From Minisyncoccota bacterium (GTDB lineage Bacteria; Patescibacteriota; Minisyncoccia; Phycocordibacterales; UBA2100), in contig JALHPE010000001.1 in assembly GCA_022842645.1 (NCBI GenBank), positions 71,711-135,710 on the forward strand: a stretch of 64,000 nt of DNA, written 5' to 3'. The translations under genes and the position numbers were made by a program. Below, piece after piece: positions 188 through 64,000 of this stretch; within the stretch, counting starts at the first letter, position 1, and every line of letters begins with the position of its first letter. The notes beneath the pieces were generated by a model that saw only the letters and a list, made by a program, of their open reading frames with translations, had not been told where the DNA came from and searched no databases.

Positions 188-203
188 GAAAAACACTATA
201 GCA

Positions 204-14043: not shown

Positions 14044-14048
14044 CCTTA

Positions 14049-14079
14049 CGGAGCCCCTCTCGGGCTCCGTTTGTTTTTT
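14049..14079 (+). terminator. Rho-independent terminator (8-bp GC stem cggagccc/gggctccg, loop ctctc, then TTTGTTTTTT)
   Basis: Read directly from the sequence, downstream of the SemiSWEET-like gene. Confidence 0.6.
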
Positions 14080-14153
14080 CCTGGGTGCATGATAGGTTGT
14101 TTGCAGTCCCCATAGGGGGCTTTTTTGTTGCAACAAAAAAGAAAGGACGTGTG

Positions 14154-14963: not shown

Positions 14964-15018
14964 CCGCACACAAGAATACGAGCGACGGGTTTCTTCGGAA
15001 ACCCGTCGCTTTCTTTTT

Positions 15019-16173: not shown

Positions 16174-16176
16174 ACT

Positions 16177-16989
16177 CTAATCGGTACTTGCGAGAATAGC
16201 ACGAGCCTCCGCCGGCGTAACGTTCATCAGAAGATCGATGATAGAAAGGTTACCGACAAATTCCCCCCCGAGTTGCGAATACGGGGAGAGCTTCCAGTTT
16301 TGCTCTTTGAGTGCAATGCCTGCCTGTTCAAACTTTGAGAAATCCATGTAGGCACCCGCTCCTGTGCCACCAAAATAGTATTCCTCCGCCTCGTACTTTT
16401 TACAGAGATCGACGAGCCAATCGTTTGCGTCGCGCCCAGATGCTTTGTCGGATGTTGTAACTCCGGATTCAGACGAGAGCACGATCTCACGGAGGCGAAA
16501 ATCTGCATGAGGCAGTGCGTCGTGTAGGTTTTTGAGATCAATGGTTGGAAGCTCGAAAAGCTGAGAGAGCGCCCACCCTATACTTGCGAGATCTATGTGT
16601 GCCACAGTCTCATACTCAGTTTCCCAAAAAGATTCAAGCGAAGGAAAAACGCGCGAAAACTGTGGCGCGTTCCGGTAGTGTTCGCGAATGATGCGTAGAT
16701 GCTTCGTGCGTTCTCTTTTATCAGCAAACCCGAGGTATGTTTCGTGTATAGCTTCATTTGCTTTGTGTTTTGTTGGAACATCGAGCATGAGAAGTCCTTT
16801 CACGCTTTTTATTGGCATGTGCGCCTGATATGAAGGGCCGATCGGATTCGAGCCGTCGGGCTTGTGGTAGGCGTGCTTGCGTACAAATTGCACATTGTCG
16901 GCAACGCTGAAGATGTCGGCATTCAAAATGCGCGCGAAATAATGGAGGCGCGGAAAATACTGCGGCTGGTATGAGACAAGGCGCTTCAT
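16177..16989 (-). CDS. WbqC-like family protein (polysaccharide biosynthesis associated)
   Basis: The N-terminal SYQPQYFPRLHYF resembles the WbqC-like signature. The start was moved to ATG 16987-16989. Confidence 0.6.
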   Translation of the reverse strand: MKRLVSYQPQYFPRLHYFARILNADIFSVADNVQFVRKHAYHKPDGSNPIGPSYQAHMPIKSVKGLLMLDVPTKHKANEAIHETYLGFADKRERTKHLRIIREHYRNAPQFSRVFPSLESFWETEYETVAHIDLASIGWALSQLFELPTIDLKNLHDALPHADFRLREIVLSSESGVTTSDKASGRDANDWLVDLCKKYEAEEYYFGGTGAGAYMDFSKFEQAGIALKEQNWKLSPYSQLGGEFVGNLSIIDLLMNVTPAEARAILASTD

Positions 16990-16990
16990 G

Positions 16991-17704
16991 CTAAATAAAC
17001 ATACGACGCAGGAGAAACGCTTCTGCCGCATCGCACCCCGCATGAATACCCCGCATGTGCGCAAGCGTGCGCGCTCCCTCAACAGAAATCGGACCGTTCT
17101 TCACTTTCATTTGGCTTTTGTAGATCGAAAGTGCTTTTAATTTAAGCGCGAGCGTTTTGTGATCCATGGATACAAAAATATTCGGCGTTGGCTTATCTGC
17201 CTCACTTGTCCATGTAAAATAAGGAAATTCATATTCCAAAACCGTCGGCACAAAATGTTTATAGTGCCCCGGCACCGGGCGCGTTGCAGTGATTGCTGCA
17301 CGATTTGCAGCACGGTGATCTTGGTTGTAATCGTGCGCAGAAGGAATTGCGAGGGTGGTCGGCTTTATCGCCTCAAGCGAAATGCCTTCACCTCGCTCAA
17401 TTTCATTAATGAGCACTTTTTGAGGCACAGCATCAAGTTGCAAGTGGTAATCATTTCCTGGAAACGCGACTTTGTAGCCATCGAAGCGCATAAGCTTTGC
17501 AACACGCGCTATTTCTTTCATCCGCTCCTCGATTGTGGATTGCCCTTTCTTTGAAAAGTCCTTAGTGGTGCCGACGGTAAGATAGAGCACAAACACCTTG
17601 CCGCCTGCTTCTTTAACACGACGAATAAGACCCCCACAGCCAAAAATTTCATCGTCGGGATGGGGTGCAACAACCAAGAGTGTACGATCTTTGGGGAACG
17701 ACAT
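16991..17704 (-). CDS. PIG-L/LmbE-family deacetylase
   Basis: LLVVAPHPDDEIFGCGG is the canonical PIG-L motif. Confidence 0.8.
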   Translation of the reverse strand: MSFPKDRTLLVVAPHPDDEIFGCGGLIRRVKEAGGKVFVLYLTVGTTKDFSKKGQSTIEERMKEIARVAKLMRFDGYKVAFPGNDYHLQLDAVPQKVLINEIERGEGISLEAIKPTTLAIPSAHDYNQDHRAANRAAITATRPVPGHYKHFVPTVLEYEFPYFTWTSEADKPTPNIFVSMDHKTLALKLKALSIYKSQMKVKNGPISVEGARTLAHMRGIHAGCDAAEAFLLRRMFI

Positions 17705-17846
17705 ACCGGAGGGCGCTCAAAGCGCGCCAGCCTGTGTTCCCCTCACAGTGGTGGCAGTATAGCCATCTATCCACAACTCGACAAGGATTGGAATATGTGG
17801 GAAATGGTGGTACTGTGCCCCTTAAGGGGAAACCGGCGAAATCGCC

Positions 17847-19178
17847 GTGGTGCAAATTCAGGAAAAAGACATTCAGACTGACGCCGTCGGACTTCCGGTT
17901 CCGACCGCTGTTTTTAATGTTGCAGTGATTGGCCTTGGTTACGTTGGACTTCCGCTTGCACTTCTTGCAAGCAGAAAGGGTCATCGGGTTATTGGCATTG
18001 ACATCAGCGAGCGAAAAATCGCGAGCATCAGGGGCGGTGTATCACCTTTTTACGACGAAAAAATACAAAAACACTTGGACGCAAAACCACTCGACGTGGA
18101 CACAAATTTTGCCCGCCTACGCGAGAGTGAGATTATCGTTGTCTGCGTGCCCACACCAGTACATGAAGATCATCTTCCCGACCTCACCCCTCTCTCGGGT
18201 GCGTGCGAATCAATTGCGCCACATTTAAAGAAGGGTTCGCTTGTCGTAATTGAATCAACGGTGAATCCGGGTGTATGCGATACGATCGTGATACCTGCGC
18301 TTGAAAAGCATTCGGGACTCAGGGCGGGCGTGGATTTCCTTGTCTCCCACTGCCCGGAGCGCGTGAACCCTGGAGACGAACGCTGGAGTGTCGAGAACAT
18401 CAATCGTGTGGTGGGGTCACTTACGCCCGAGGGATTAGAAAAAACACTTTTTTTCTACCGCTCTATCGTGCGCGGTGAGGTTCGCCCCATGGGATCCCTT
18501 AAAGAAGCCGAGGCGGTGAAGATTGTTGAGAACACGTTTCGTGACGTGAATATTGCATTCGTGAACGAACTCGCACTTTCGTTCGATAAGCTCGGGATTG
18601 ATGTCGTCAATGTTATTGAAGCAGCTTCCACAAAGCCATTCGCCTTTATGCCACACTTTCCCTCGTGTGGCGTCGGCGGTCACTGCATTCCGGTTGATCC
18701 GTACTACCTGATCGAAGAAGGGCGGCGCAATGGCTTCGAACACGAATTCCTTTCACTCGCGCGCTCAATCAACAATCGCATGCCAGTGCACACCGTAAAT
18801 CTCCTTGCGCGCACTCTTGAAGAGCACAACGAAGAACTTCGAGGCGCACGCATCGCGGTGCTTGGCCTTGCATATAAATCTGACATCGACGACACGCGCG
18901 AGAGCCCTGCGCGCATCATACTCAAAGAACTCACCGTGCGTGGCGCAGAACCTGTTCCCTACGACCCGTTCGTAAAAGGCGAGGGCGCTGCATCTCTCGA
19001 AGAAGCACTCAAAGGCGCACGCGGGGCGATTGTCGCTACATCACATCGCGCCTTCCGCTCACTTTCACCTGAAGATTTCCTAAAACACAACGTGCGCGTC
19101 GTGATTGATGGTAAAAACTGTCTCCCTAAGCAGGTCTTTCTCGACGCAGGTATCCACTATCGCGGGATTGGGCGCTAA
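17847..19178 (+). CDS. Nucleotide-sugar dehydrogenase (UDP-glucose / UDP-N-acetyl-mannosamine 6-dehydrogenase family)
   Basis: AVIGLGYVGLPLALLA N-terminal Rossmann fold and a central catalytic Cys region. The true start may be an internal GTG near 17925. Confidence 0.85.
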   Translation: MVQIQEKDIQTDAVGLPVPTAVFNVAVIGLGYVGLPLALLASRKGHRVIGIDISERKIASIRGGVSPFYDEKIQKHLDAKPLDVDTNFARLRESEIIVVCVPTPVHEDHLPDLTPLSGACESIAPHLKKGSLVVIESTVNPGVCDTIVIPALEKHSGLRAGVDFLVSHCPERVNPGDERWSVENINRVVGSLTPEGLEKTLFFYRSIVRGEVRPMGSLKEAEAVKIVENTFRDVNIAFVNELALSFDKLGIDVVNVIEAASTKPFAFMPHFPSCGVGGHCIPVDPYYLIEEGRRNGFEHEFLSLARSINNRMPVHTVNLLARTLEEHNEELRGARIAVLGLAYKSDIDDTRESPARIILKELTVRGAEPVPYDPFVKGEGAASLEEALKGARGAIVATSHRAFRSLSPEDFLKHNVRVVIDGKNCLPKQVFLDAGIHYRGIGR

Positions 19179-19182
19179 CCCA

Positions 19183-19211
19183 TATGTGGGACTTACGAAG
19201 TCCCACATATA
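19183..19211. repeat. REP-like palindrome, family A copy 1 (stem atatgtgggact/agtcccacatat, loop tacga)
   Basis: 12-bp perfect stem read from the sequence. The same core recurs inverted at 41801-41825. Confidence 0.7.
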
Positions 19212-19253
19212 GAAATCGTGCGGAAAACACGTTTTTAAGGTAGTCTTGCGAGA

Positions 19254-20399
19254 ATGTTTTCCTTCAAAATACTCAAACGCTCAAAAAAGAGCCGGGCGCG
19301 GCTTGGGGTGATTTCCACGCCGCACGGCGAAGTGGAGACTCCCTCGTTCATTCCTGTTGCAACGCGCGCCACCGTGCGCACACTTGATAGCGATGAAATC
19401 GCGGAAGTGGGTTCGCAGATGCTCATTGCAAACACGTATCACCTTATGGTGGCTCCGGGAGAAAAGACAGTCCAAAAAGGCGGCGGTGTTCACGGTTACA
19501 TGCACTGGAAAAAGCCGCTCATGACTGATTCGGGTGGTTTTCAAGTGTTTAGCTTAGGGTTCGGACGCGATCACGGTGTTGGAAAAATTCTGAAAGACGA
19601 GAAAGATCGTCATATTGAGGGTGGTGCCCAACCGGTTTCAGTGAAGATCACGGAAGAAGGTGCACACTTCCGCTCCCCCATCGACGGTAAAGAACATTTT
19701 CTTTCCCCCAAAGTATCTGTAGGTATTCAGGAAAAACTTGGTGCAGACATTATCTTCGCGTTCGACGAATGCCCTTCCCCACTAGCAAACGAGGAGTACA
19801 TGCGCCGCTCGCTGGAAAAGACGCATCGCTGGGCGCAGGAATCGCTTGACGCACGAAAGAACGCGAAAAAGCAGGCAATGTATGGCATTGCGCAAGGTGG
19901 TGCTTTTAGACATCTGCGCAAAGAAAGTGCGCGCGCAATCGGAAGCATGGAGGGATTTGAAGGATTTGGTTTTGGTGGTGAATTTGGTTACGACAAGAAA
20001 CAGCTTGGGCGAGGTATTGCTGAAGTGGTGGATGAACTGCCGGAAGGAAAGCCCCGCCACGTGCTCGGCATTGGTCACCCCGAAGATTTCCCTATCATCG
20101 CAAAAAGTGGCGGCGACACGTTCGACTGCATTGCGCCGACACACTATGCGCGTCGCGGTGTCATATTTACGTCGAAAGGCAGGATTGACTTGCGCAAGCC
20201 TCGTTTTCTCAAAGATTGGAAGCCCTTGGATAGCGCGTGTAAATGCATGATCTGCAAAAACTATTCGCGCTCGTACGTTTCGCATCTTCTGCGCGGCCAT
20301 GAGATCACCGGCCTCAAACTCGCCACCTATCACAACCTCTTTTTCTTTAATGCTCTTGCGGCAACAATGCGCAAACGTATAAAAAATGGTGATATTTGA
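19254..20399 (+). CDS. tgt: Queuine tRNA-ribosyltransferase
   Basis: Conserved Tgt N-terminal region and a C-terminal zinc site CxCxxC...H (CKCMICKNYSRSYVSHL). ATG verified. Confidence 0.9.
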   Translation: MFSFKILKRSKKSRARLGVISTPHGEVETPSFIPVATRATVRTLDSDEIAEVGSQMLIANTYHLMVAPGEKTVQKGGGVHGYMHWKKPLMTDSGGFQVFSLGFGRDHGVGKILKDEKDRHIEGGAQPVSVKITEEGAHFRSPIDGKEHFLSPKVSVGIQEKLGADIIFAFDECPSPLANEEYMRRSLEKTHRWAQESLDARKNAKKQAMYGIAQGGAFRHLRKESARAIGSMEGFEGFGFGGEFGYDKKQLGRGIAEVVDELPEGKPRHVLGIGHPEDFPIIAKSGGDTFDCIAPTHYARRGVIFTSKGRIDLRKPRFLKDWKPLDSACKCMICKNYSRSYVSHLLRGHEITGLKLATYHNLFFFNALAATMRKRIKNGDI

Positions 20400-52407: not shown

Positions 52408-52956
52408 TTATTCGACCACATACACCCAGCCCGGTTGCCACGACTTCGTCTTACGCCAATCTTCGGCAAGCGCCTCTTTCCAAGTCTTGCCCTTAAGAAT
52501 CACATCAAGCGAAAGCTGAGGTGCCTTATGCCCGACAATAGCTATATGCTTCCCGTCATAGTTCTGTTTGAGAAATGCGATGAAGTCGGCAATACGCGTT
52601 TTCACATCTTCATAGCTCTCCCCGTTCGGGAATGGCTTTTCAATGCACTCGTCTTCTTGCATTGGCTCAACGATATCTGAAGAGGCACCATTCAGATCTC
52701 CATAATTACATTCGCGAAGTCGCGCATCCGGGATGATTTCGTAGAGTCCGTCCCACGCAAGTTTTGCCGGATCGTGAGCGCGCTTGAGGTCGGAGCAAAA
52801 GACGACATCGAACCTCATATCCTTTGTTTGCTCTTTCAATGCGACTGACTGTTGGTGGCCGAGCTCTGACAGTTCAACATCTTTCCACCCGGAAGAAATA
52901 TGCTGTTCGTTGTCGGTGGTAGTGCCGTGAACGAAGTAAGTAATTTGTATTGACAT
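52408..52956 (-). CDS. Histidine phosphatase superfamily protein (phosphoglycerate-mutase-like branch)
   Basis: YFVHGTTTDNE corresponds to the RHG catalytic-His motif region, with a downstream LGHQQ motif. Confidence 0.6.
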   Translation of the reverse strand: MSIQITYFVHGTTTDNEQHISSGWKDVELSELGHQQSVALKEQTKDMRFDVVFCSDLKRAHDPAKLAWDGLYEIIPDARLRECNYGDLNGASSDIVEPMQEDECIEKPFPNGESYEDVKTRIADFIAFLKQNYDGKHIAIVGHKAPQLSLDVILKGKTWKEALAEDWRKTKSWQPGWVYVVE

Positions 52957-53071
52957 ATTGATATTTTAACAGAAAAGACCGCTCTCAGCAGGTATGCAAT
53001 TACGGAATAGATATTCTTTCCAGTATCTAACCCCTTTGGTTCTTTCGATACTTAACTACGCTGTTGCCAGA

Positions 53072-53181
53072 CTTGGATTCGCTCCCCGAATATTTCTTGC
53101 GCCGCGGCGCAAGAAATTTCTAGAGCCGCGGCTCGCGGTCTCGCCTTCTAGCGAGACATCGCTCCGCCGTTCGAATCCAAG
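53072..53181. other. Cloverleaf-like composite palindrome: outer 10-bp inverted repeat (cttggattcg/cgaatccaag) enclosing three internal hairpins
   Basis: Palindromes at 53092-53117 (26 nt perfect), 53123-53134 (gagccgcggctc) and 53138-53157 (gtctcg...cgagac), followed by more hairpins to about 53300. Confidence 0.5.
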
Positions 53182-53696
53182 CCGGAGTGTGCGCAGGCAC
53201 ACTCCTTCCGGCAATAAAATTGCTACGCTATTTTATTGGCTTGGCGGGACTATCTACGAACTGTTAGTTGGGAAGAAATGTTCCCGTATCCCAGTGTTTC
53301 CCTCCAGCAAATGCAGCAATTACTGGCGCTGGCTCACTAGAACAGTATCCGTATATCCGTATCAGACCCGTAATGTACCAAGTATAACAGTTACGTACTG
53401 GTGCATATAGACTCGCCATTCCAGATTCTCAAAATGGGTGGTGGGTGTTTTCTTTTTGACCTTTCAGTTCGGCGGGCGGTCACCCTATCCAAGTTGGAGC
53501 ATTTCGGGGCAAAACCCTTACCAGGTGCGCTGTCGTACCATTGTCCTCATTTGTCGTTGATGGTAGTTGAGGACATATCCAAAACCATTGTCCTGTTTGC
53601 TATGCGTATAACCGTATATGCCAAGTTATGGATAAACATAGAAAATGGGTGTACTCTCGTTTTACCTCACCCGAAGTTGGGTAAAAACCACCCACT

Positions 53697-53903
53697 CTAT
53701 AGGGTGTCTTTTTTAGCTCCCTTTTCCTCTTTGGCACGAGCATCGTATTCATCAGCCCATTCTTTCTTGATTGGTCGGTAAATCACATTGAAAAGATTGA
53801 GCAGATTGATTGCCTCCTCGGTAGCCTTCTCATCAGAAATGTCCTCACTAAATTGTTTGCGCCAGATGGTCTTGAAATCTGAAAGCGCCTTTTTGGATAG
53901 CAT
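53697..53903 (-). CDS. Small hypothetical protein downstream of rloC
   Basis: 68-aa charged ORF, 4 nt from the rloC stop, followed by a bidirectional hairpin plus T-run at about 53688-53714. Confidence 0.35.
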   Translation of the reverse strand: MLSKKALSDFKTIWRKQFSEDISDEKATEEAINLLNLFNVIYRPIKKEWADEYDARAKEEKGAKKDTL

Positions 53904-53907
53904 TGTG

Positions 53908-56358
53908 TTATTTCTTTGCTTTCTCCAGCTTTAACTTCCCACATTGGCACTCTATGGACTCTTTGCTTCTGTGATACTCAACAAATTGGTGGCAGTCTTT
54001 GCACCATAATTCGTTCTCCAATTTGAACCATTCTTCTGCCGCTCGCTTTATTTCCGCTGGAGCAATTGAGGTGCCGCTGTTAGTTCTTGCGTGGGATACA
54101 AAGTTACGCATAATCGGCTCATACTTTTTTGCTTCTTGAATCTGTTGAACAGCTGCGTGTCCTTTTGCTTTATCGTTGAGTCGTGCGTACAGCGCATCAA
54201 AAAGCTCCTCCATCGAAGGCGGGTCATTCTTTGTGTAACGATAACGAACTGCCGCCCAAAGCCCCTCGCAGAGTTCGTTTAGAGTGCTCTCTACATAACG
54301 CCCCAGTTTCCACCCTGCATCCTCAATCCTAGTAGAGTCTTTCAGACACTCTTCAATCTCTTCTTGAGTGGTAGCAGCGACATCAATCACAGCGCCTGTC
54401 TCATAGCCCCAGCTTTTAATTTTCTTAGGTATCCACTTCGGGAATCGGCGAACAATTTTCTGGAACCAATAATAATCGTGTGTGAAAAGTATTATCTGAT
54501 AATCGCTAAACTCCTGCTCAATCAAATCGAGCAGAGTGTCTCGCTTGTCTATATCGAGACTGTTCATTATGTCGTCAAGAACTATGAACTTGCAGCTATC
54601 GTTGAACTGTTTGATGCAGGTGAAGTAAACCGCCAAGCCCAGGCTGTTGAGTAGTGATTCACTCAAGACCTTGTACGCAGGTTTAACTGTTACATCGTAG
54701 TAATGCAGCTGTATTTCTGCGGAACGCCCAGCTGCTCGTCCTTTCTCTTCGTTGAGAACAATCTCAATGTTCTTAATGTCTTTATCATTTCTCAAAATGG
54801 AAAAGTATTTGCCAATCCTTTCTGAAATTTCATTGAAGCGCGACTTTATATTTTCTTGAATGAGAGTGATGAGCTTGTTGCTTACCGCAGCAAAAGCAGT
54901 GATTTCTTTTTCCGTGAATTGAGATTCAGCTTCCGTATCCCGTATTTCAATTAGCTTCACCCTAATTTGGGTAAGTTTTTCTATATCCTCTGCCAACTTC
55001 AAGTCCCTCTCTGAAGGCTGAATCTTCGTCTTTTCGGAAGTGATGGTTTTTAGAACTTCTTTCTGTTCCGCTTCTACCTGTTCGATGAGTTCCTTTGTGA
55101 GAGCAATTTCGGTTGTAGCACCAAGTGGCTTAGCAAGCCAGCCGCTTTCAAGTCCAGAGAGAATTTCCTTGTAGGCTTTGGTCTTTTCGTAAGTGAGAGC
55201 AGGTATTATTTTTTGCACATCGTCATACTTTGATAGCAACCTCTCTATGGTGCCCGCTTCCTGTCTCACAACTGATTTCAAAGTGTTAATTACTTTCTCT
55301 ATGGCTTCTTTGTCCTCCTTAACTTTCGTGAGTAAGTTCAATTCGTCTTGAATATGCTTGACCAGCTCATCTCTTTCCCAAGATGTGCCGCAAACGGGAC
55401 AGGTAGTGCTGGTTTCCGTCTGTTTATTCAAAACCTCTAGCGCTTGGTCATACAGACCAATGACATCAATCTGTTCTATTCGTTTTAGCTCTTTGTTGAA
55501 GTCGTCTAATTGCTTCTTTGCGTCAACGAGCGAACCAAGCAGCGTATTGCTTACAGTAAATAATCCGATACTGGTTTCAGCTTGAGTAAGCTTGTCTATG
55601 GTGATGCCCACAGATGATGTGGCACGCAATTTTGCGAACTCTGGAATGTAGGCGAGAAGACCCTCGATACTTTTCTGTTCAGCAATCTTGTGAGCGGTCA
55701 GTACGCCGTTACAGATACGTAGGATTTCTATGTCGGATGTATCTTGGCTACCCGTAAGCTTGAATAGATGCTGTTCAAGCGCCTTTACAGTGGCAGCAAG
55801 CTCATCCTTCTTTCGCTTTAACTCTGGGAGAATTTTAAGGGCAAGTTTTTCCTGGAACGACAGCTCACTTTCAAAACCCATCCAGTTTGCAAGTCGTTGG
55901 TATTTTTTCAGTCCCGTCTGATTGTAAACAAAGTCTATTACCTCCAAGTAACGAAGGTATGGCTTAATTACGAATGCTTTGTAAACATTCTCAAAGTCAT
56001 CATCAGAAGACAGAGATGGCTGCGTAATCTTTTTGTGATTGTAGGTTTTGCGCAGCGTATCAAGTTTCTTTTCAGAATCGTCGAACTGCAACTCAACAAA
56101 ACTTTCGTCTTTGTCTGGGTCAACTGCCAAGTGTGGGTACGCTTTTTCTTCAGCATCCTCTCTTGTGAGCCATTCAACTTTGTTATCTTCAGACAAGAAC
56201 CATTCGACACCATCAACAAAAGAAGTTTTGCCAGAACTATTTAACCCATAGAGAACGAGTGAGCGCGGTTTTTTATCATCCTTTGCTGTAAGGAGTAAGT
56301 CCTGTGGCTTGAGAATGCCCCTGAAACCGCTAAGCGTTATTTTTCTTACTTTCAGCAT
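53908..56358 (-). CDS. rloC: RloC-like anticodon nuclease: Rad50/SbcC-like ABC ATPase with a coiled-coil zinc hook and a C-terminal PrrC-like tRNase domain
   Basis: Walker A GLNSSGKTS, a long coiled-coil with CPVC at its centre, Walker B FIVLDD, and H-loop LFTHD. The C-terminal roughly 200 aa carry KLGRYVESTLNEL and NFVSHARTNSG, matching the PrrC/RloC nuclease motifs. It sits next to the restriction-modification genes. Confidence 0.7.
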   Translation of the reverse strand: MLKVRKITLSGFRGILKPQDLLLTAKDDKKPRSLVLYGLNSSGKTSFVDGVEWFLSEDNKVEWLTREDAEEKAYPHLAVDPDKDESFVELQFDDSEKKLDTLRKTYNHKKITQPSLSSDDDFENVYKAFVIKPYLRYLEVIDFVYNQTGLKKYQRLANWMGFESELSFQEKLALKILPELKRKKDELAATVKALEQHLFKLTGSQDTSDIEILRICNGVLTAHKIAEQKSIEGLLAYIPEFAKLRATSSVGITIDKLTQAETSIGLFTVSNTLLGSLVDAKKQLDDFNKELKRIEQIDVIGLYDQALEVLNKQTETSTTCPVCGTSWERDELVKHIQDELNLLTKVKEDKEAIEKVINTLKSVVRQEAGTIERLLSKYDDVQKIIPALTYEKTKAYKEILSGLESGWLAKPLGATTEIALTKELIEQVEAEQKEVLKTITSEKTKIQPSERDLKLAEDIEKLTQIRVKLIEIRDTEAESQFTEKEITAFAAVSNKLITLIQENIKSRFNEISERIGKYFSILRNDKDIKNIEIVLNEEKGRAAGRSAEIQLHYYDVTVKPAYKVLSESLLNSLGLAVYFTCIKQFNDSCKFIVLDDIMNSLDIDKRDTLLDLIEQEFSDYQIILFTHDYYWFQKIVRRFPKWIPKKIKSWGYETGAVIDVAATTQEEIEECLKDSTRIEDAGWKLGRYVESTLNELCEGLWAAVRYRYTKNDPPSMEELFDALYARLNDKAKGHAAVQQIQEAKKYEPIMRNFVSHARTNSGTSIAPAEIKRAAEEWFKLENELWCKDCHQFVEYHRSKESIECQCGKLKLEKAKK

Positions 56359-56512
56359 ATCGTTTTTTTATGAGATTCAGTATCTTACCAGCGGTGTCTT
56401 TGCCATCTTCATTTGTCGCATTGGAATCAGACAACAACTGAATGAACGCTGCATCCAGTTCTTTGTCTTTCTTCATTTCCTCAAGATGAGTTTTTATGAT
56501 GTCGCTGCTCAT
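56330..56512 (-). CDS. Small hypothetical ORF between hsdMS and rloC
   Basis: 60-aa ORF from ATG 56512 that overlaps the rloC start by 29 nt. Coding status is uncertain. Confidence 0.25.
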   Translation of the reverse strand: MSSDIIKTHLEEMKKDKELDAAFIQLLSDSNATNEDGKDTAGKILNLIKKRYAESKKNNA

Positions 56513-56516
56513 ATAT

Positions 56517-59015
56517 TTATTCGCCCCAAACCTCGGCGATTTTGGATTTAATCTTTTCCTCAAACAACGCCACAATTGCTTTCGTAGCTTCAATTTGTTG
56601 CTGCTCTTCTTTGAGCTTCGCTATTACCTCGCGCTGGACTTCCAACGACGGTAACGGGATTTTGAAGCCCTTTACCTGGTCAGTGGTGAGATTCTTGAAC
56701 ACTGCGCCGATTGATAGCGAGTGGTTGACTACTTTCTGGTAGAACAGCACATAGTAGAAAAACTCTGGCAATATATCTTTTGAAAGTTCTCTGAACCCAA
56801 CCCAACCGTCGTGAATACACGCATCAACTTTTAGTATTGATGGTAAGCCAGGATTGCCGCTCACTGCCATTACCACTTCTCCTTTCTTCATTGGTCTACT
56901 CAACTTTGCGCCCTCTTCGGTGAGAAAATCTGTCTCTGGCATAACATACATTCCGTCTCTGGTTACATCGGAAATCATTAGGCGGGGAACTTTACCGCCA
57001 TAGTAACGAGAGTCTCCCTGGGGTCGTGGCGAACTACCGCGAACCAATTTACAGATACTATCTACATCAACGGTTTTCCAGCTCGCGTCAATCTTTATGA
57101 GGGGTTTGTAGTTGGTAACAATTTGCTTTGCACCATCAATAACTTTCTGATAATTACCCAGCTCTGTAACAAATTGCTCTTGTATCTCCAGGGGCGGGAG
57201 AGGAATGGAGAAAGAATAGAAACCATCAACTTTCAAATGCTTAACATTCGCTCCATTAGAAAAATTAACAATATAGTCTCGGTATTTCTTAGACCTTAAG
57301 AGATAGTAAAGGTAGGTCGTATTCAAACGGGAATCCTTTAAGACAATTCTTCCGAGGTCGGCGGAATGTGCTGCGCGTATGGATTCAGTAATAATTTTAG
57401 GTGCACCAATAATTTCCGAAGTTGGTGTTAGGTCAGTGAGAGCTATCAGAACATCTCCCGTCTTAACAAGAAATTTCTCTTTAACACCGCCAGTAAAATA
57501 CTTGAATCCGTGGTCAAATAAATCGCCATTTCTCTTAATAGATTTTAAGTTATAGAGAGGAACTCCCGCCTCTGTTTCGCTTATTTCTTTACTGGAGTAT
57601 GAAATACCGCGCTGAACCTCACATAACTCACCCAGCTTTACAACATCCCATCGTTGATTGCTTTGCAACGCGGCAACTTTATAGCTTTCTCCAGAGAGAT
57701 TGTAGTCTCCACTTGCTTCAATCTTCGACTTGGGCACTGCCCAGGCAAACAAGCTACCTTTCTTAACGAGAGAGTTTTTAGTACCTGCTTTAACGGCGGC
57801 GCGTTGTTCGTGCAAAACTTCTACGGCGTGAGGAAGGTCGTTTCTATCTACTGGTCTTCGCTGTGCTCCAAGTTCAAACCCATCATTGAGGACTTTCACA
57901 AATAATATTTCCTTTGATTGTTTTGCAATCTGATTATCAAAAAAGAGAATACTGGTTTTTACACCAGAGTAAGGACTAAAGACTCCAGCGGGTAAAGAAA
58001 CAACTGCATAAAGTCCGTCTTCAACAAGAATTTTACGAAGTTGTTTGTAGGCGTTTGATGCGGTGAAAATAATTCCCTCGGGCACGATGATACCCGCACG
58101 CCCCTTGTTGTTAAGATGCTCGGTAATGTAATCAACGAAAAGAACCTCGGAGCGGTTAGCATCTACTGTAAAACGCTTGTGTGGACGGATACCGCCCTTC
58201 GGGGTCATAAAAGGCGGATTCGCCATCATTACATCAAAGCGCTCATCCCATTTCTCTTCGCTCGTCAGGGTGTCATATTCGTGGATGTTTGGGCTTGGAA
58301 AGCCGTGCAGATACATATTCACCAGGGAGAGCTTCACCATATCTGGAGAAATGTCGTACCCCGAAAGGTTGCCCATTAAGCGCTTCTTTTCGTCGGGAGT
58401 TAGCGGCTTATTCTTGTTCGATTTGAGAATGTGTTTATAGGCTGAAATAAGAAAGCCTGCTGTGCCACACGCGGGGTCGAGTATCGTTTCGTCTTTCTTT
58501 GGGTCAACAACCTCAACAATAAAATCAATGATGTGTCGGGGTGTTCTAAATTGTCCCGCATCACCTTGAGAGCCGAGCACAGAAAGCAGATACTCAAACG
58601 CATCACCAAGATTCTCGCTATGGTCGTATGCAAAACTGTTTATCTCTTTCAAAAAGAGATTGAGTGTTTCGGGGTCGCGGTATGGCAAAAAAGCATCTTT
58701 GAAAATGTCGCGGAAGAGTTGCGGAAGATGCGGATTCTTCGACATCTTTGCAATGGCTTCAACATAGAGATTTAGACGCTCCTGTCCACCAAGCTTTGCA
58801 TCCATCATCTTGCCCCACGCATACTTTTCAAAACCATTCGTGAAAAACTGCGCCTTACCCTTTGGCAAAGAAGCCGCCTGCTTATCCATATCGTCCATAA
58901 ACTTGTAGATAAGAGCGGTGGTAATTTGCTCTACCTGCGCTTTTGGGTCAGGAACTTTACCAACCAAAATGTCCCGCGCCGAGTCAATCTTCTTTTTTAT
59001 TTCGGGGGTAAGCAT
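56517..59015 (-). CDS. hsdMS: Type I restriction-modification fused methyltransferase-specificity subunit (HsdM N-terminal and N6-adenine methylase domains plus two HsdS target-recognition domains)
   Basis: HsdM_N region, motif I DPACGTAGFL, and motif IV NPPF in the first roughly 430 aa. These are followed by two target-recognition repeats with the conserved PLPPLEIQ / PLPSLEVQ motifs. Confidence 0.85.
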   Translation of the reverse strand: MLTPEIKKKIDSARDILVGKVPDPKAQVEQITTALIYKFMDDMDKQAASLPKGKAQFFTNGFEKYAWGKMMDAKLGGQERLNLYVEAIAKMSKNPHLPQLFRDIFKDAFLPYRDPETLNLFLKEINSFAYDHSENLGDAFEYLLSVLGSQGDAGQFRTPRHIIDFIVEVVDPKKDETILDPACGTAGFLISAYKHILKSNKNKPLTPDEKKRLMGNLSGYDISPDMVKLSLVNMYLHGFPSPNIHEYDTLTSEEKWDERFDVMMANPPFMTPKGGIRPHKRFTVDANRSEVLFVDYITEHLNNKGRAGIIVPEGIIFTASNAYKQLRKILVEDGLYAVVSLPAGVFSPYSGVKTSILFFDNQIAKQSKEILFVKVLNDGFELGAQRRPVDRNDLPHAVEVLHEQRAAVKAGTKNSLVKKGSLFAWAVPKSKIEASGDYNLSGESYKVAALQSNQRWDVVKLGELCEVQRGISYSSKEISETEAGVPLYNLKSIKRNGDLFDHGFKYFTGGVKEKFLVKTGDVLIALTDLTPTSEIIGAPKIITESIRAAHSADLGRIVLKDSRLNTTYLYYLLRSKKYRDYIVNFSNGANVKHLKVDGFYSFSIPLPPLEIQEQFVTELGNYQKVIDGAKQIVTNYKPLIKIDASWKTVDVDSICKLVRGSSPRPQGDSRYYGGKVPRLMISDVTRDGMYVMPETDFLTEEGAKLSRPMKKGEVVMAVSGNPGLPSILKVDACIHDGWVGFRELSKDILPEFFYYVLFYQKVVNHSLSIGAVFKNLTTDQVKGFKIPLPSLEVQREVIAKLKEEQQQIEATKAIVALFEEKIKSKIAEVWGE

Positions 59016-59018
59016 AGA

Positions 59019-61535
59019 TTACATATAGGCGTTAAGAGACACATAGTCCTTCACATATTCAGGCACTTTCTCGACCCATCCGTTCACTGCTTCCAAGTCA
59101 GCCATATTGAGCTTTGGATTTGTTGCGAGACGGGTATATTCACCCTTTTCGATGATGTCTCGAATCTCGTTGTCGGTAATGTATGCCTTGAGGTAGTTCT
59201 TGATTGGCATTGCATACTGGCTTTCTGGCTTGTTGATGGCGACAAACTTTTCAAACTCGTCCTCAAGAAGTTCGTCTTTTGATTTGAAATTGGTTATGCC
59301 GCCGAAAGCTTTTTCAACAAACTCACGTAAGCTGATACGACGGTCAGCTTTTACAGACCTGCGCAATTTATCAAGACTGAAGAACTCATCTGGCTTGTCA
59401 AAAATCTCGTCCTTCACATAGTCTTCAATGGTTGCCAAATCACCCTCGGCATATTTCTGCTTGATGAATGGATTTTCTGTAATGGTCGTCTCAAACTTCT
59501 CAAAAAGCTTGCGGTCAATTTTCATACCCTCAACACCAACAGCTTTTTCTGAAAAGGTTTTGAGTGGGTCTGGCTGGGTAATTACGATTTCATCAATGTT
59601 GATACCGCCTCCATCCTCTCCGCCACCCGTGCCAGTTTTAGGCGGTAAGTGCAGAACCTCGTCGTAGTCATACTTTTCCTCGAAGTATTCGCAGTTAGCG
59701 AAGAAATCGAAGAGCTTGAATTTATCCTTTGGGATTCTAGCTTCTTGAACTTCACCTGCATCTTTTTCTTTATGCGCAAAAGTGAACTTGCGTGTGCCGC
59801 GCCCCTTTATCTGGATGAAGTCAGTTGGTGAGAAAATTGGACGCATCAAACACACATTGAGTATGTCTTCGCAGTCGTAACCAGTAGTCATCATCCCTAC
59901 CGTTACGCATACGCGAGTTTTGCTTGAGCGGTATCCCTCCAAGAACTTGGTGTGCCCGTTTAGATTGTTGTTTGCAAAATTTACAGTAAAGCTCTGTGCG
60001 TCAGGAATGTTTGAGCTAACCTGTACTGCAAAATCTGAATTGTATTTGCCTGGGTAGAGTTGGTCAGCAAACTGGTTGAGAATCTGCGTAACTTTTGAGG
60101 CGTGCTTCTGGCTCACGCAGAAAATTAAGCTCTTCCCAATTTCTCCAGTGATAGGGTCTTTAACGGCATTCTCAATAAATGTCTTGCAGAAAATCTGGTT
60201 GGTCTTATCGGAAAAGAACTTCCTCTCAAAGTCAGTGTGAAAGAATGACTGCTCTTCTTCTTTGCCGTTCTCATCCTCAATCATCATCGCGTAACCCTTC
60301 TCTGAAAGAAGCTCCGTAGTAATTTCAGTCCGAGCATCGGCAACGACTGGGTTCACTAAGTACCCATCTTTTACGCCATCAAGCAAGGTGTAGCGGAAGG
60401 TAGGCTCGCCAGTCTCACAGCCGAATGTTTTGTATGTGTCAAAAAGCTGGCGGCGTTCCCACGCACGAGGGTCTTTTGAGTTCAACTTTTCTGGGTCAAT
60501 GCCTTTGAGATAATTTCTCGGTGTTGCAGTGAGTCCAAGTTTGTAGCTCACGAAGTATTCAAAGACCGCTCGGCTGTTTCCACCGATTGAGCGGTGGGCT
60601 TCGTCAGAAATAATCAGGTCAAAGTCAGTTGGAGAAAAGAGCTTCTGATACTTGTTATTGAATGAGAGGCTTTGCACTGTTGAAACAACAATTTCTGCCT
60701 TGCGCCAATCATCCTTATTTTCCTTGTAGATGACTGTCGTGTAGTCCTTCGAGAGCCACTTCTTAAAGTTCTTATTCGCCTGGTCTTCAAGCTCCAAACG
60801 GTCAACAAGAAACAGCACACGCTTTGCGTTGCCTGTTTTCAGGAAAAGCTTGATAACTGCTGCGGATACGAGCGTCTTACCTGTGCCCGTAGCCATCTCA
60901 AACAGATAACGGTCATTGCCCTTACCTCCAGAGTCTTGCAGTGCTTTTATCGCTCGGAGCTGATACGGACGAAGGAATTTCAATGCCTCGGTATCAATAA
61001 GACCCTGGCGTTCTTTCTCATCAGCCCAGCGTGGGTCGCTGCGATAATCAGACTTTTGCGTAAGAACGATGTAGTCCTCATCAACCTGCTCATCCGCCAA
61101 TCGCTTTGGGTTAGGCTTGAATGCCTCAAAGTGCTGAAGAGAGGTCGGTGTAGGAAATTGGATAATGACAGTCGGATTGCCACGCTCTAAATCCCAGAAG
61201 TAGTGTAAGTTGCCGTTTGAGAGGATAATGAAGCGCACATTGAGCGATTGGGCGTACTTACGTGCCTGCTCTTTGCCATCGAGGGGGTCTTTGTCTTCTG
61301 ACTTGGCTTCGAGCACGACATACGGAAATCCCTTTTCATCGAGAAGAAGAAAATCTATGTAGCCGTTCTTTGTTTTTTCAAAGTCACTACCGAGCGCATC
61401 AACTTCTTTTTGGGTGAGTTTCGCATTCGTCTCAAGTGTGATGTTGGCTTTACCGTTGGCGTCATCAAAAAAGCGCCAGCCTGATTTCTGGAGTAAGTCG
61501 TTTATCTTTATTCGTGCCTTAGCTTCTTTTTGCAT
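59019..61535 (-). CDS. hsdR: Type I restriction enzyme R subunit (compact, 838 aa)
   Basis: N-terminal PD-(D/E)xK nuclease (DFLLLDE...LEAK), SF2 helicase motifs (GTGKT, DEAH in LIISDEAHRS), and a C-terminal helical domain. Confidence 0.85.
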   Translation of the reverse strand: MQKEAKARIKINDLLQKSGWRFFDDANGKANITLETNAKLTQKEVDALGSDFEKTKNGYIDFLLLDEKGFPYVVLEAKSEDKDPLDGKEQARKYAQSLNVRFIILSNGNLHYFWDLERGNPTVIIQFPTPTSLQHFEAFKPNPKRLADEQVDEDYIVLTQKSDYRSDPRWADEKERQGLIDTEALKFLRPYQLRAIKALQDSGGKGNDRYLFEMATGTGKTLVSAAVIKLFLKTGNAKRVLFLVDRLELEDQANKNFKKWLSKDYTTVIYKENKDDWRKAEIVVSTVQSLSFNNKYQKLFSPTDFDLIISDEAHRSIGGNSRAVFEYFVSYKLGLTATPRNYLKGIDPEKLNSKDPRAWERRQLFDTYKTFGCETGEPTFRYTLLDGVKDGYLVNPVVADARTEITTELLSEKGYAMMIEDENGKEEEQSFFHTDFERKFFSDKTNQIFCKTFIENAVKDPITGEIGKSLIFCVSQKHASKVTQILNQFADQLYPGKYNSDFAVQVSSNIPDAQSFTVNFANNNLNGHTKFLEGYRSSKTRVCVTVGMMTTGYDCEDILNVCLMRPIFSPTDFIQIKGRGTRKFTFAHKEKDAGEVQEARIPKDKFKLFDFFANCEYFEEKYDYDEVLHLPPKTGTGGGEDGGGINIDEIVITQPDPLKTFSEKAVGVEGMKIDRKLFEKFETTITENPFIKQKYAEGDLATIEDYVKDEIFDKPDEFFSLDKLRRSVKADRRISLREFVEKAFGGITNFKSKDELLEDEFEKFVAINKPESQYAMPIKNYLKAYITDNEIRDIIEKGEYTRLATNPKLNMADLEAVNGWVEKVPEYVKDYVSLNAYM

Positions 61536-61566
61536 AGTACATTTTCATATTCATTGGGAGTTGGAC

Positions 61567-61758
61567 TTATCCCTTCTTTTTCTTACCCATCTTGAAACTA
61601 CTCTCAATAAAATTATCGAGGTCTTCCTGTCGGAATCTCCAATAACCTATTTTAGCGGCTTTAATACGCCCGTCGTGAAGGTAGCGAAACAGTGTACGCT
61701 CGCCTACATCCAGGTATTTCGCTGCCTGCTTCAAAGTTAAAAACTTCTCTTTCTGCAT
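61567..61758 (-). CDS. Excisionase / AlpA-type helix-turn-helix DNA-binding protein
   Basis: 63 aa, with LTLKQAAKYLDVGERTLFRYLHDGRIKAAKIGYWRF typical of the excisionase (MerR-like) family. Confidence 0.65.
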   Translation of the reverse strand: MQKEKFLTLKQAAKYLDVGERTLFRYLHDGRIKAAKIGYWRFRQEDLDNFIESSFKMGKKKKG

Positions 61759-61838
61759 AATGTCTAATTTCTAAACTTCTACTCCCACAGTTTATCTCTT
61801 TTATTCGTATCTGGCAAGATTTGGCAACTTCTGCTAAA

Positions 61839-62531
61839 ATGAATTTTATGAGTATGGATATGAAAATGACACTCGAAGAGAAAGATTCCTTATTTGCTCG
61901 CATTATCAGCGAGCATCTTGCGACACAAAAAACTTCTCCAGTATATGTGCCCACGTCACACGTCGAGGCGAAGGGTTTTGATACATCTGATACCAACAAT
62001 GCACTTTGGAGACTCAAAGATAATGGTGCGATAAAGAAATACAGGCGATGCTGGGGCTTTTTTGAAGTTCAAAATGGCAAGAAGAAGTTTGTGATAACAA
62101 GTGCCAACGAGCAACAAACAGATGAGGACGCAGAGGTGTTTGAAGTTGAGGTTGTTCTAGGACGACTTGCACAGATGACTAAAAATAGAGGCGGGGTCTC
62201 AAAGACAAACGATGCGGTTGTTCTTCACCTCAACAAAAATGGTGATTTATTCAAAGAACCAAGAGAAAAGTTTTGTTATGAAATGATGGGTGCAAAAGTC
62301 CCTCTCAAGATTTTGAGATACTTTATTGATAATCCGAATACTGAATACGAGCAGTCCACAGAAGACATAGCATCAAGCATTGGAATGAAAGCTGAACAAC
62401 TCCGAAAAGACATTGGTGAAATGCGAAGAACTATCAAGAATAGGCTTAAGTTGCCACTAGAATTATTTGAAGGACGGCAAGGTAGTGGCTATCGGCTCAA
62501 TCCAAAGGTAGAAATCATACAAGAGAACTAG
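61839..62531 (+). CDS. Hypothetical protein of the island
   Basis: ATG at 61839; the track begins at TTG 61821. No motif recognised. Confidence 0.45.
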   Translation: MNFMSMDMKMTLEEKDSLFARIISEHLATQKTSPVYVPTSHVEAKGFDTSDTNNALWRLKDNGAIKKYRRCWGFFEVQNGKKKFVITSANEQQTDEDAEVFEVEVVLGRLAQMTKNRGGVSKTNDAVVLHLNKNGDLFKEPREKFCYEMMGAKVPLKILRYFIDNPNTEYEQSTEDIASSIGMKAEQLRKDIGEMRRTIKNRLKLPLELFEGRQGSGYRLNPKVEIIQEN

Positions 62532-62660
62532 ATACCTACAGCTACCCTGTAGGTACTGTCCATAACTTGAAGAGCGGCTGTGTAAACAGGCGCTTTTTCC
62601 GTTTCAAAAAGTATCTACCGATTATGTTCAGAGACGGCAGCACATTGCTAATTTTAAGCA

Positions 62661-62906
62661 ATGGAAGATGCAGAGAAAATCGGAGTAAGTGATTTGGGCT
62701 TGGCGTCCCTTTTGGCGACGCTTCAATTTCAGATGGTCGGTCTGGAGCGTGTGAACGAAAAACGCATCAACTTTCTGTTCACGCAAGTGGAGGGCATTGA
62801 GAAAGTAATCAATGATTATTGGGCTGGCGCTGAAATTTCAGTCCCAGTTCAGAGTCTCTTCTTTAACCAGAAGACACTCAAGAATCGTTTGTATGCCTTC
62901 AAATAA
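62661..62906 (+). CDS. Hypothetical small protein
   Basis: 81-aa ORF with ATG start. Confidence 0.4.
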   Translation: MEDAEKIGVSDLGLASLLATLQFQMVGLERVNEKRINFLFTQVEGIEKVINDYWAGAEISVPVQSLFFNQKTLKNRLYAFK

Positions 62907-63062
62907 ATGAAACTTACCGATGAACAACTGCAAGCACTGCGAGCACCATTCGAGGAAGCTGGTGCATTTGTTGATTGTTCAGAAGAGGAGATAAAGAGTT
63001 TGCTGGAAGCGATTGCAGAGATTTACGTGACTCTCGCAAAAGAAAACCTACTCACAAAGTAA
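62907..63062 (+). CDS. Hypothetical small acidic protein (51 aa)
   Basis: ATG 62907 immediately after the previous stop. Translation MKLTDEQLQALRAPFEEAGAFVDCSEEEIKSLLEAIAEIYVTLAKENLLTK. Below the ORF-track cutoff. Confidence 0.3.
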   Translation: MKLTDEQLQALRAPFEEAGAFVDCSEEEIKSLLEAIAEIYVTLAKENLLTK

Positions 63063-63067
63063 TAACT

Positions 63068-64000
63068 ATGCAAAATGAAAATCAAAACTTAATAGACGCG
63101 CTTCGATACTGCCAGTTGGGATTCTCGGTGATACCAGTGAACTTTCAGAGCAAGGTGCCCCTTGTGAACTGGCGGGAATACCAAAGCAAGCGTGCTTCAA
63201 GTGAACAGATTGAATACTGGTTTAAGAATCCAGAGGTCAATGTGGGCATTGTTACAGGCGTCATCTCTGGAATTGTAATTGTAGATATTGATACTAAAGA
63301 GAAAATCGGCAGACCATTACCTCCAACCGCAACAACTCGCACGGGTGGTGGTGGCTCACATTTTGTATATAGACATCCTGGGATTCCAGTAAAGACTGTT
63401 GCTGGACTACTCCCTGGGGTTGATATAAGAGGTGACGGAGGATATGCGGTGTTTCCACCATCAACGCACCAAAACGGTAACAAGTACGAATGGATAATAC
63501 CGCCAGAGGACGGAATTACTGAACTGCCAGAATGGGTACTTGAGGAACTGTCCAAAAAGCCACCTCAAAACACAGGAAAGATACCCGAAGGCGCAAGAAA
63601 CTCTGCTGCAACACAGGTTGCTGGCAGGTTGCTTAGCGGTGCCCTCACAGAAGAACTCTCGGCGCTTGCTTGGGAAACTATGAAGCAGTGGAATGAGGAG
63701 AAGTGTGAGCCACGCCTGCCAGACAAAGAACTACGCGCAACCTTTGAGAGCATCTTTAGGCGTGAATCAACTAAGCGAGCGACAGAAAAATCTCACTACG
63801 AGTTGCAGACCATCACGCTATCGGAATTGGCTGCAATGGAGTTTTCAGCTCCAAGATGGCTGGTAGATAAACTCATACCACACGAGTCTGTGACTATCAT
63901 TTCTGGAGCACCCGCATCGTACAAGACGTTCATTACGCTCGATATTGCACTCAAGGTGTCTCGTGGGGAAAAATTGTTCGGCGAGTTTGAAACGAGCAAA
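63068..64000 (+). CDS. Bifunctional DNA primase-polymerase (Prim-Pol) N-terminal domain fused to a P4/RepA-like AAA ATPase, 5' partial (runs off the window)
   Basis: My own translation from ATG 63068: SVIPVNFQSKVPLVNWREYQ, then IVDIDTKE, then GVDIRGDGGYAVFPPSTH, then NKYEWI. This is the Prim-Pol signature. It is followed by VTIISGAPASYKTFITLDIA, a Walker-A-like AAA_25 motif. Absent from the ORF track because it has no stop in the window. Confidence 0.75.
   Translation, partial: MQNENQNLIDALRYCQLGFSVIPVNFQSKVPLVNWREYQSKRASSEQIEYWFKNPEVNVGIVTGVISGIVIVDIDTKEKIGRPLPPTATTRTGGGGSHFVYRHPGIPVKTVAGLLPGVDIRGDGGYAVFPPSTHQNGNKYEWIIPPEDGITELPEWVLEELSKKPPQNTGKIPEGARNSAATQVAGRLLSGALTEELSALAWETMKQWNEEKCEPRLPDKELRATFESIFRRESTKRATEKSHYELQTITLSELAAMEFSAPRWLVDKLIPHESVTIISGAPASYKTFITLDIALKVSRGEKLFGEFETSK

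Follow-up and report, generated by a model that had tools for sequence, protein, structure and literature searches.

Staphylococcal cassette chromosome (SCC) elements encode a primase/polymerase and a helicase for their own replication and frequently have a type I restriction-modification (R-M) system as cargo, and in phiRv1 an excisionase (Xis)-type helix-turn-helix (HTH) factor acts with a serine integrase. tRNA genes are overwhelmingly the targets of tyrosine integrases (PMC10484663). Tycheposons (Hackl et al.; bioRxiv 10.1101/2020.12.28.424599) are cargo islands beside tRNA genes that combine a primase/helicase replication module with an excisionase-type gene and a site-specific recombinase, and serine recombinases at tRNA-linked islands have been noted in passing, in 27 of 937 elements in Prochlorococcus (bioRxiv 10.1101/2020.12.28.424599). 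Here we analyse an island with putative defence genes at the right end of the 64,000-nt stretch of Patescibacteria DNA presented above (the window, meaning that whole stretch). We propose, with a probability of about 0.82, that it is a 13.9-kb integrative and probably self-replicating element, inserted into a Paceibacteria-type chromosome by a large serine recombinase (LSR) at the CCA end of tRNA-Gln(CUG). A defence island with a nearby integrase is as such ordinary among bacteria; the main interest lies in the apparent family-wide docking of LSRs at tRNA 3' ends.

Like tycheposons, the element is integrated directly at a tRNA, has its recombinase next to that tRNA and carries a replication module. 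Most tycheposons, however, use tyrosine recombinases and partial tRNA copies of ~40 nt, whereas this element has an LSR, ends that share 5-7 nt, and a predicted insertion point at the CCA end. The two also differ in host and cargo (marine cyanobacteria and nutrient genes versus Patescibacteria and putative defence genes), a comparison that leaves protein-level relatedness aside. With SCC the element shares the plan of an LSR-driven island at the 3' end of a conserved housekeeping gene, but SCC targets rlmH in Firmicutes, the target here is a tRNA, and Ccr models score the LSR at 51-79 bits against cut-offs of 700-900. Its domain architecture is that of the phiC31, Bxb1 and phiRv1 integrases, and its mechanism is presumably the same (a 2-bp staggered crossover at short att sites, with an accessory factor setting the direction), although it is at most 29% identical to phage serine integrases, targets a tRNA 3' end and would have its attP within the recombinase open reading frame (ORF). 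By analogy, the element may act both like a tRNA-associated replicative island of the tycheposon kind and like SCC. We found no description of serine-recombinase islands at Patescibacteria tRNAs in the literature, whose coverage was incomplete and hence gives no proof of novelty.

Extent and backbone of the island

GC content drops from ~0.51 to ~0.44 near 53 kb and stays low through the end of the window; it amounts to 43.9% within the island and 51.1% outside it. Averaging 1-kb intervals gives 0.437+/-0.015 for the 13 in the island and 0.511+/-0.024 for the 55 in the host (Mann-Whitney p=4.6e-8), while the tetranucleotide correlation with the host average is r=0.46-0.56 in the island and 0.86-0.94 elsewhere. 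An earlier note on this DNA had claimed a compositional shift at about 53 kb and an integrative island with defence genes, an excisionase-type HTH protein and a Prim-Pol; the computed profiles bear out the shift, and composition together with gene content bears out a horizontally acquired island. GC is also somewhat lower at 1-5000 (0.45-0.48), but this part encodes ordinary housekeeping functions (BacA, VTT-domain, thioredoxin-like) and a second island is not indicated.

Using an exact look-up of the island's DUF5659 protein, we found Logan contigs from runs SRR28154519-31. One of them, L001 (17,278 nt), is 100% identical to window 53190-64000 and runs 6.5 kb further. Window and extension were analysed together (70.5 kb), and positions above 64000 are extended coordinates from L001 (L001 position + 53189). 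Past the window, L001 completes the Prim-Pol gene (ending at 64771) and then carries two small ORFs, a 536-aa LSR and tRNA-Gln(CUG), with two small membrane-protein ORFs and then pyrG and ftsX to the right of the tRNA. The recombinase gene begins 1.6 kb past the window end, where the earlier note had expected an integrase; its class is that of a large serine recombinase and not of a P4-type tyrosine integrase. The genes called earlier inside the window (hsdMS, hsdR, the HTH gene, three small ORFs and a Prim-Pol running off the end) were all recovered at their places. The island spans window 53242 to extended 67149, or 13,908 bp with one core copy counted. Its backbone consists of an HTH_17 gene on the minus strand, followed on the plus strand by a 223-aa protein, DUF5659, a 51-aa ORF, the replication gene, a small ORF and the recombinase:

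61567..61758, minus strand: HTH_17/excisionase-domain protein, 63 aa (HTH_17 E=1.9e-14), first gene of the cargo operon
61860..62531, plus strand: backbone protein, 223 aa, with homologues in L089, L092 and L096 and no Pfam family
62661..62906, plus strand: DUF5659 backbone protein, 81 aa (Pfam E=2.8e-5), 72-74% identical in L089, L092 and L096
62907..63062, plus strand: backbone ORF, 51 aa, 61-75% identical in L089, L092 and L096
63068..64000 and on to extended 64771, plus strand: Prim-Pol/PriCT_1/AAA_25 replication protein, 567 aa (Pfam E=2.7e-31, 2.4e-9 and 1.1e-30)
extended 65585..67195, plus strand: LSR, 536 aa (Resolvase, Recombinase and Zn_ribbon_recom)
extended 67145..67218, minus strand: tRNA-Gln(CUG), intact (ARAGORN; Rfam 57.5 bits)

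The replication protein, whose complete gene lies at L001 9879-11582, also matches PHROG primase/polymerase families, and the element may replicate as an episome. The 223-aa protein possibly has a C-terminal winged helix; it gives a weak match to the CooA DNA-binding domain (E=0.044).

The backbone recurs in contigs L089, L092, L096 and L100 and, in reduced form, in L106-L108, and the DUF5659 gene was called at the same position in L100, L104 and L106. The replication gene encodes Prim-Pol/AAA_25 in our element, L092 and L096, and a Toprim primase instead in L104. Two sisters are complete elements: that in L100 (LSR 74% identical) lies between pyrG on its left and tRNA-Gln(UUG) with PfkB on its right, and that in L104 (72%) between PemK and tRNA-Gln(CUG), pyrG and ftsX. 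A third, L103 (82%), preserves the right end only, followed by tRNA-Gln(CUG) and DnaX. Our element sits between a histidine phosphatase gene and tRNA-Gln with pyrG; our element and its sisters thus adjoin tRNA-Gln in four different neighbourhoods.

Attachment sites and proposed integration at tRNA-Gln

The tRNA-Gln(CUG) gene overlaps, antisense, the final 51 nt of the LSR gene; tRNA and Rfam scans restricted to the window gave no match because this tRNA sits past the window end. The recombinase has the domains (PF00239, E=2.8e-22; PF07508, E=5.1e-15; PF13408, E=4.6e-4 at 20.9 bits, under its 25.3 cut-off), the catalytic-serine motif YCRVSSKEQ and the PHROG integrase-family match (E=2.5e-77) of its class, and its domain architecture, size and tiny shared att core mark it as a predicted serine integrase. 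At the level of sequence, comparison with the sister elements establishes the junction positions:

53235..53241: attL core ATTGGCT, with the same 7-mer at attR (extended 67143-67149)
53242..53339, plus strand: P' arm of the attachment site, beginning TGGCGGGACTATCTACGAACTGTTAG, shared with L100 and L104

The minimal core common to the sisters is TGGCT (53237-53241), the complement of AGCCA, that is, of tRNA A72, G73 and the CCA end, and its position agrees in L100 and L104. Window 53237-53339, which comprises TGGCT and the P' arm, is 80.6% identical to L100 948-1050 over 103 nt (E=5e-21), and the arm motif occurs also at L104 position 624. The arm starts directly after TGGCT in our element, L100 and L104, and all three left junctions read host-TGGCT-TGG[A/C]GGGACTAT[C/G]TACGAAC. 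At five right junctions TTGGCTG is invariant and is followed by the host-specific acceptor stem. Left ends of L100 and L104 contain no T-arm remnant, and their homology to ours begins only at 53237. The earlier note had set the left boundary at 52957 and advised looking for a direct repeat of the left end: the non-coding DNA beside the histidine phosphatase is indeed strongly hairpin-rich, but the island's true end is at 53235-53241, ~280 nt further right, and instead of a long repeat attL and attR have only 5-7 nt in common (ATTGGCT in our genome). No attL remnants were present within 10 kb upstream in L089, L092, L095 and L096, and none was evident in L007. Dyad-symmetry scoring of the reconstructed att sites gave no informative signal. 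A 4-nt GGCT deletion in our attL, considered at one stage, was dropped when re-alignment of the three junctions made it unnecessary.

These positions suggest that the island's own LSR exchanges strands inside TGGCT, at the extreme 3' end of tRNA-Gln(CUG). A crossover at this extremity would leave the entire tRNA host-derived and intact, with only 5-7 nt common to attL and attR, as expected for a recombinase needing just a dinucleotide of identity. The predicted attP is then CAACCAAATTGGCTTGGCGGGACTATC and attB GCTATTTTATTGGCTGCCGGACTTGG, the empty tRNA-Gln site would be followed by the window's ...GCTATTTTAT, and the corresponding junction k-mers would be CAACCAAATTGGCTTGGCGGGACTATCTACG for attP and CTACGCTATTTTATTGGCTGCCGGACTTGGATTCG for attB, the attP junction itself reading ...AAATTGGCT joined to TGGCGGGACT. 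The attachment site would lie inside the 3' end of the recombinase ORF. Its integrated form terminates in ...NWL-PDLDSNQDTLLQRE, the final 15 codons being antisense to the tRNA. When the ends are joined computationally as in a circle, the LSR ORF reads into the P' arm and reaches 577 aa, with its stop at window 53410, and a hand translation of the L100 left end gives a circle-form tail of 18 codons. Since the circle-form tails are of unequal lengths and their substitutions are mostly non-synonymous, the P' arm is more likely kept at the DNA level, as a putative binding site, than for the protein that it encodes.

The right flank is host DNA, because the arrangement of pyrG, the small ORF p58 and tRNA-Gln is conserved in relatives. 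The pyrG product is 82% identical to that of L005, a Candidatus Paceibacterota genome and the closest available species, in which p58 is kept next to pyrG; nearly all of the 80 pyrG loci that we kept are from Patescibacteria-type genomes, and tRNA-Gln recurs downstream of pyrG on the same strand in many of these relatives. Past its tRNA-Gln, at 13208-19210, L005 has different genes, including a 597-aa ORF weakly matching our HsdM region (24% identity), and no serine recombinase is present in that interval; the tRNA-Gln flank seems to be variable in L005 too. The left flank comprises:

52408..52956, minus strand: histidine phosphatase gene (His_Phos_1, Pfam E=1e-30), last host gene on the left, outside the island
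53065..53213: palindromic, hairpin-dense block on the host side with two inverted tRNA-Gln 3'-half fragments, outside the element according to the sisters

Host-side contigs L085-L088 likewise carry the histidine phosphatase gene, along with Peptidase_S41, glmS-like and further host genes. None of these left-flank genes (histidine phosphatase, Peptidase_S41, glmS-like) lies beside pyrG in L005 or the other 79 pyrG loci, so no empty site is recoverable. In the hairpin block, one tRNA-Gln fragment is on the minus strand (53065-53081) and the other on the plus strand (53169-53181 and 53206-53213, interrupted by a 25-nt hairpin), and the two pair with each other around three further hairpins. Folded as DNA, 53060-53245 has a z-score of -7.2, and folded as minus-strand RNA one of -8.6; none of 200 shuffles folded equally well. 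Most of the block (53066-53238) is on the host side of the left junction. The inverted fragments could have been left as scars by earlier tyrosine-type islands, or could form a palindromic element derived from a tRNA.

Several observations weigh against insertion by the LSR at the CCA end. Neither an empty site (attB) nor a circular junction (attP) was seen, and the junctions rest solely on the sister elements. L005, the closest species, has other genes beyond its tRNA-Gln. An LSR crossover at the CCA end cannot generate the two inverted tRNA-Gln 3' fragments in the host flank. Unusually for LSR sites, the attB half on the host side is not the same in the three hosts. In the source samples, short-read contigs without exception break at 53190-53212, 23-45 nt host-ward of attL: those from the host side reach 53212 and those from the island side begin at 53190, overlapping in several samples by the 23-mer TGCGCAGGCACACTCCTTCCGGC. 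In a k=31 graph such a break implies that the 23-mer is present in several contexts; no other copy was found in the 70.5 kb or in IMG/VR, and coexisting attB and attP forms would not produce a break at this place. No transfer mechanism is evident, with packaging and conjugation genes absent, and the activities of recombinase and cargo are predicted from their genes.

The fragment nearest the histidine phosphatase gene suggests a different crossover, in the T-loop as in tRNA-targeting tyrosine integrases. The island (then 53082-67165) would bring in a tRNA 3' half of its own and push the previous one out to 53065-53081, and attP would read ...GGACTTGGATTCG joined to CTCCCCGAATATT (k-mer ...GGATTCGCTCCCCGAA). 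This account draws on a 17-nt repeat with one mismatch between window 53065-53081 (TGCCAGACTTGGATTCG) and extended 67149-67165, and the displaced copy has discriminator A, as in L005. We first read this repeat as attL and dropped it once L100 and L104, which have no T-arm remnant, put the junction at 53237-53241; left-end homology starting at 53237, 155 nt further right, the second inverted fragment beside the first, which a T-loop crossover does not predict, and host-side contigs that continue through 53082-53212 make the account very unlikely. The contig break raises the separate question of whether host flank and island were joined by the assembler through a short repeat, such that the histidine phosphatase is not a true neighbour, since all Logan contigs in several samples end at 53212 or start at 53190 with a mere 23-nt overlap. 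We consider such a chimera slightly less probable still: the hairpin abutting TGGCT to the right of the break has the same layout as the host arms of L100 and L104, and the recombinase is recorded on a 408-kb NCBI contig that would span the join independently if it is the window's source. The identity of the island and its right end hold either way.

Two further alternatives concern the nature of the element. It would be a decayed, immobile remnant, a fixed defence island with relic recombinase and replication genes, if the missing attB and attP forms, the unbranched passage of L001 through attR and the absence of transfer genes were taken at face value. Every backbone ORF is intact, however, and so are the catalytic motif of the LSR and the domains Prim-Pol and AAA_25, the island still differs strongly from the host in composition, and sisters at 72-82% LSR identity in different contexts argue for recent mobility of the family, so that we regard a remnant as unlikely. 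The layout of integrase, excisionase-type HTH and primase-helicase is that of a phage satellite (P4-like or PICI-like) or prophage remnant, and the earlier note had described the gene set as 'P4-like' or 'ICE-like'. Neither likeness holds up in the gene content. The only recombinase is of the serine type, with no tyrosine integrase, and Pfam and PHROG show no capsid, terminase, packaging, redirecting or helper-exploiting genes in the island ORFs. Likewise, Pfam matches of the called genes and Pfam scans revealed no relaxase, coupling-protein or type IV secretion domain in any island ORF. Together with an LSR that has no IMG/VR relative and whose nearest phage counterparts are so distant, this makes a satellite or prophage origin highly improbable.

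A recombinase family at tRNA 3' ends

The LSR has 1,285 homologues at E<=1e-30 and no relatives in IMG/VR; identity to the phage LSRs in our collection is at most 29%. Relatives among phages and plasmids are distant throughout, the Prim-Pol being at most 30% identical to plasmid Prim-Pol proteins. We checked the 3' end of the gene at 17 LSR loci, 12 at 35-100% identity (ours included), 3 at 49-56% and 2 at ~25-29% that were met by chance among pyrG loci. At 13 of the 17, a complete tRNA gene extends across the LSR stop codon: Gln(CUG) at four, Gln(UUG) at one, Ser(UGA) at two, Asn(GUU) at two, Glu(UUC) and Thr(CGU) at one each, and intron-bearing tRNAs at two. Three of the remaining loci have an antisense tRNA 3' end where the contig ends or the tRNA is unclear, and one has nothing. 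The intron-bearing tRNAs, in L096 (11612-11910, minus strand) and L108 (11625-11943, minus strand), contain a group I intron after the 3' exon (RF00028, 89.9 and 67.6 bits), which is why ARAGORN missed them.

A far-reaching extension of these observations is speculative, and we hold it rather unlikely in full. It would make our element a member of a large, undescribed family of Patescibacteria LSR islands that dock at the CCA ends of Gln, Ser, Asn, Glu, Thr and intron-bearing tRNAs with attP in the 3' coding end of the LSR, such that integration swaps the C-terminal tail of the recombinase for a tRNA-antisense peptide and excision restores the tail encoded by P'. If it is true that the tail swap, or antisense transcription into the tRNA, reports the integrated or free state, this would be a new control of serine-integrase directionality.

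Upstream of the small ORF and the LSR, extended 65132-65305 (L001 11943-12116) holds a strongly conserved promoter (TTGACC, ~17 nt, TGnTATACT). Behind it come a structured leader of ~150 nt and a hairpin that, with its T-run, looks like a terminator. Promoter and leader occur also in L089 (from 8835), L090 (from 786), L100 (from 9304) and L103 (from 1339), and one leader helix still pairs through GC-to-UA swaps between two sequence groups. Rfam on L001 found no family at gathering score in the leader, which may be an attenuator or a small RNA governing recombinase expression.

Other features were observed near related elements. L095 has two LOOT RNA matches (RF03000; 6890-7007 and 4418-4515, both on the minus strand; 74.4 and 42.9 bits, gathering 46.4) in or next to a related element. 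In L108, an RVT_1 reverse transcriptase gene (17915-19339) lies beside a bAvd gene, a pairing that marks diversity-generating retroelements; the related island is a few kb away.

Putative defence cargo and the zinc-hook ATPase

The cargo is a minus-strand operon headed by the HTH_17 gene, which faces the replication module across a short divergent region; the small-protein and Prim-Pol genes are transcribed divergently from it. Behind HTH_17 come:

59019..61535, minus strand: HsdR, type I R-M restriction subunit (ResIII, HSDR_N, Helicase_C; PADLOC REase_I)
56517..59015, minus strand: fused HsdM-HsdS, 832 aa, with two target-recognition domains (N6_Mtase E=3e-54, Methylase_S twice)
53908..56358, minus strand: Rad50/SMC-like ABC ATPase, 816 aa (Pfam SMC_N/AAA_21; PADLOC LmuB E=8.5e-25)
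53697..53903, minus strand: ORF of 68 aa, last of the cargo operon, called in L001, no family match

HsdR, HsdM and HsdS are encoded together, as in a predicted type I R-M locus. HsdR scores 230 bits against an EcoAI-family model, under its cut-off of 550, and the fused HsdM-HsdS matches PADLOC MTase_I (E=6.6e-100) and Specificity_I. A similar HsdM-S fusion is present in L100 (805 aa, N6_Mtase plus Methylase_S) and probably in L089 (61% identity over residues 1-646). The slot behind HTH_17 holds type I R-M in our element, L089 and L100, a ~1,550-aa superfamily 1 (SF1) helicase in L092 and L096, Mrr_cat, DpnI-like and DUF5677 genes in L107, and an OLD-like ATPase-nuclease in L108, while L104 carries PHP-SMC and DUF2726 without HTH_17. 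A constant backbone with a varying slot is what a mobile platform would show whose defence cargo can be exchanged, and the gene families suggest that the cargo is active in defence.

An HTH_17 homologue is found in the same position in L089, L092, L096 and L100, and the gene was called there in L107 and L108; it heads the cargo operon in every element that has one and is absent from L104. The protein matches the TIGR01764 excisionase domain (44 bits, cut-off 28.8) and PHROG excisionase families. Since the gene is always at the operon head, its product may be a regulator of the operon or element instead of, or besides, an excisionase, and on its sequence both roles, regulator and recombination directionality factor, are plausible. 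It is a candidate for controlling excision.

The ATPase has 114 homologues at E<=1e-10, none of them named and most ~810-830 aa long. Across 40 aligned homologues the Walker motifs are conserved, C320-P-x-C323 in the middle of the coiled coil is invariant, as are C786, C789 and C804 of a Cys-rich ribbon, and R751-N-x-x-x-H756 is nearly invariant, with Ser before His in our protein. An AlphaFold model (pLDDT 84.7) shows long antiparallel helices, and the best PDB fold is Rad50 (7zr1, E=7.5e-11). The model of the C-terminal 172 residues (pLDDT 81.8) combines a four-helix bundle with a zinc ribbon, for which Foldseek against PDB gave no significant match and, as best geometric hint, the HEPN toxin HepT (E=2.1). 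R751-N-x-x-x-H756 resembles the HEPN motif, and the C-terminal domain is possibly of the HEPN type. The LmuB match raised the possibility of a Lamassu system, which we rejected: there is no LmuA-type effector gene adjacent, the sole neighbour being the 68-aa ORF.

The gene had earlier been labelled 'rloC', and the label is unproven. Neither AAA_13, which we take to be the PrrC/RloC Pfam family, nor an RloC model matched the ATPase in Pfam, PADLOC and other family-model scans. RloC is defined by ABC motifs, a zinc hook and an Arg-X3-Glu-X36-52-His triad (PMC2610378). The 816-aa protein is close in size to the 804-aa RloC of Geobacillus kaustophilus (PMC2610378), and both are coiled-coil-interrupted ABC ATPases with a CxxC zinc hook in the insert, a C-terminal helical domain with Ser-His, and type I R-M linkage. 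The triad spacing is matched in part only: E718-x37-S755-H756 fits, but the Arg at -4 is missing, so that our protein has no Arg-X3-Glu at the expected spacing, and it has an additional Cys-rich ribbon after the C-terminal domain. In overall design and in being associated with type I R-M, the ATPase thus resembles RloC, but neither its membership of the family nor an RNase activity is proven.

The genomes of Patescibacteria are tiny, and few mobile elements have been described in them; this element family points to a route by which these bacteria may gain and exchange defence systems, one backbone carrying type I R-M, SF1-helicase, Mrr/DpnI-like, OLD-like or PHP-SMC cargo in the same slot. By using the 3' terminus of a tRNA without altering the tRNA itself, an LSR clade of this kind would widen the known target range of serine integrases, and would offer compact, probably host-factor-independent integrases for conserved sites in uncultivated bacteria.

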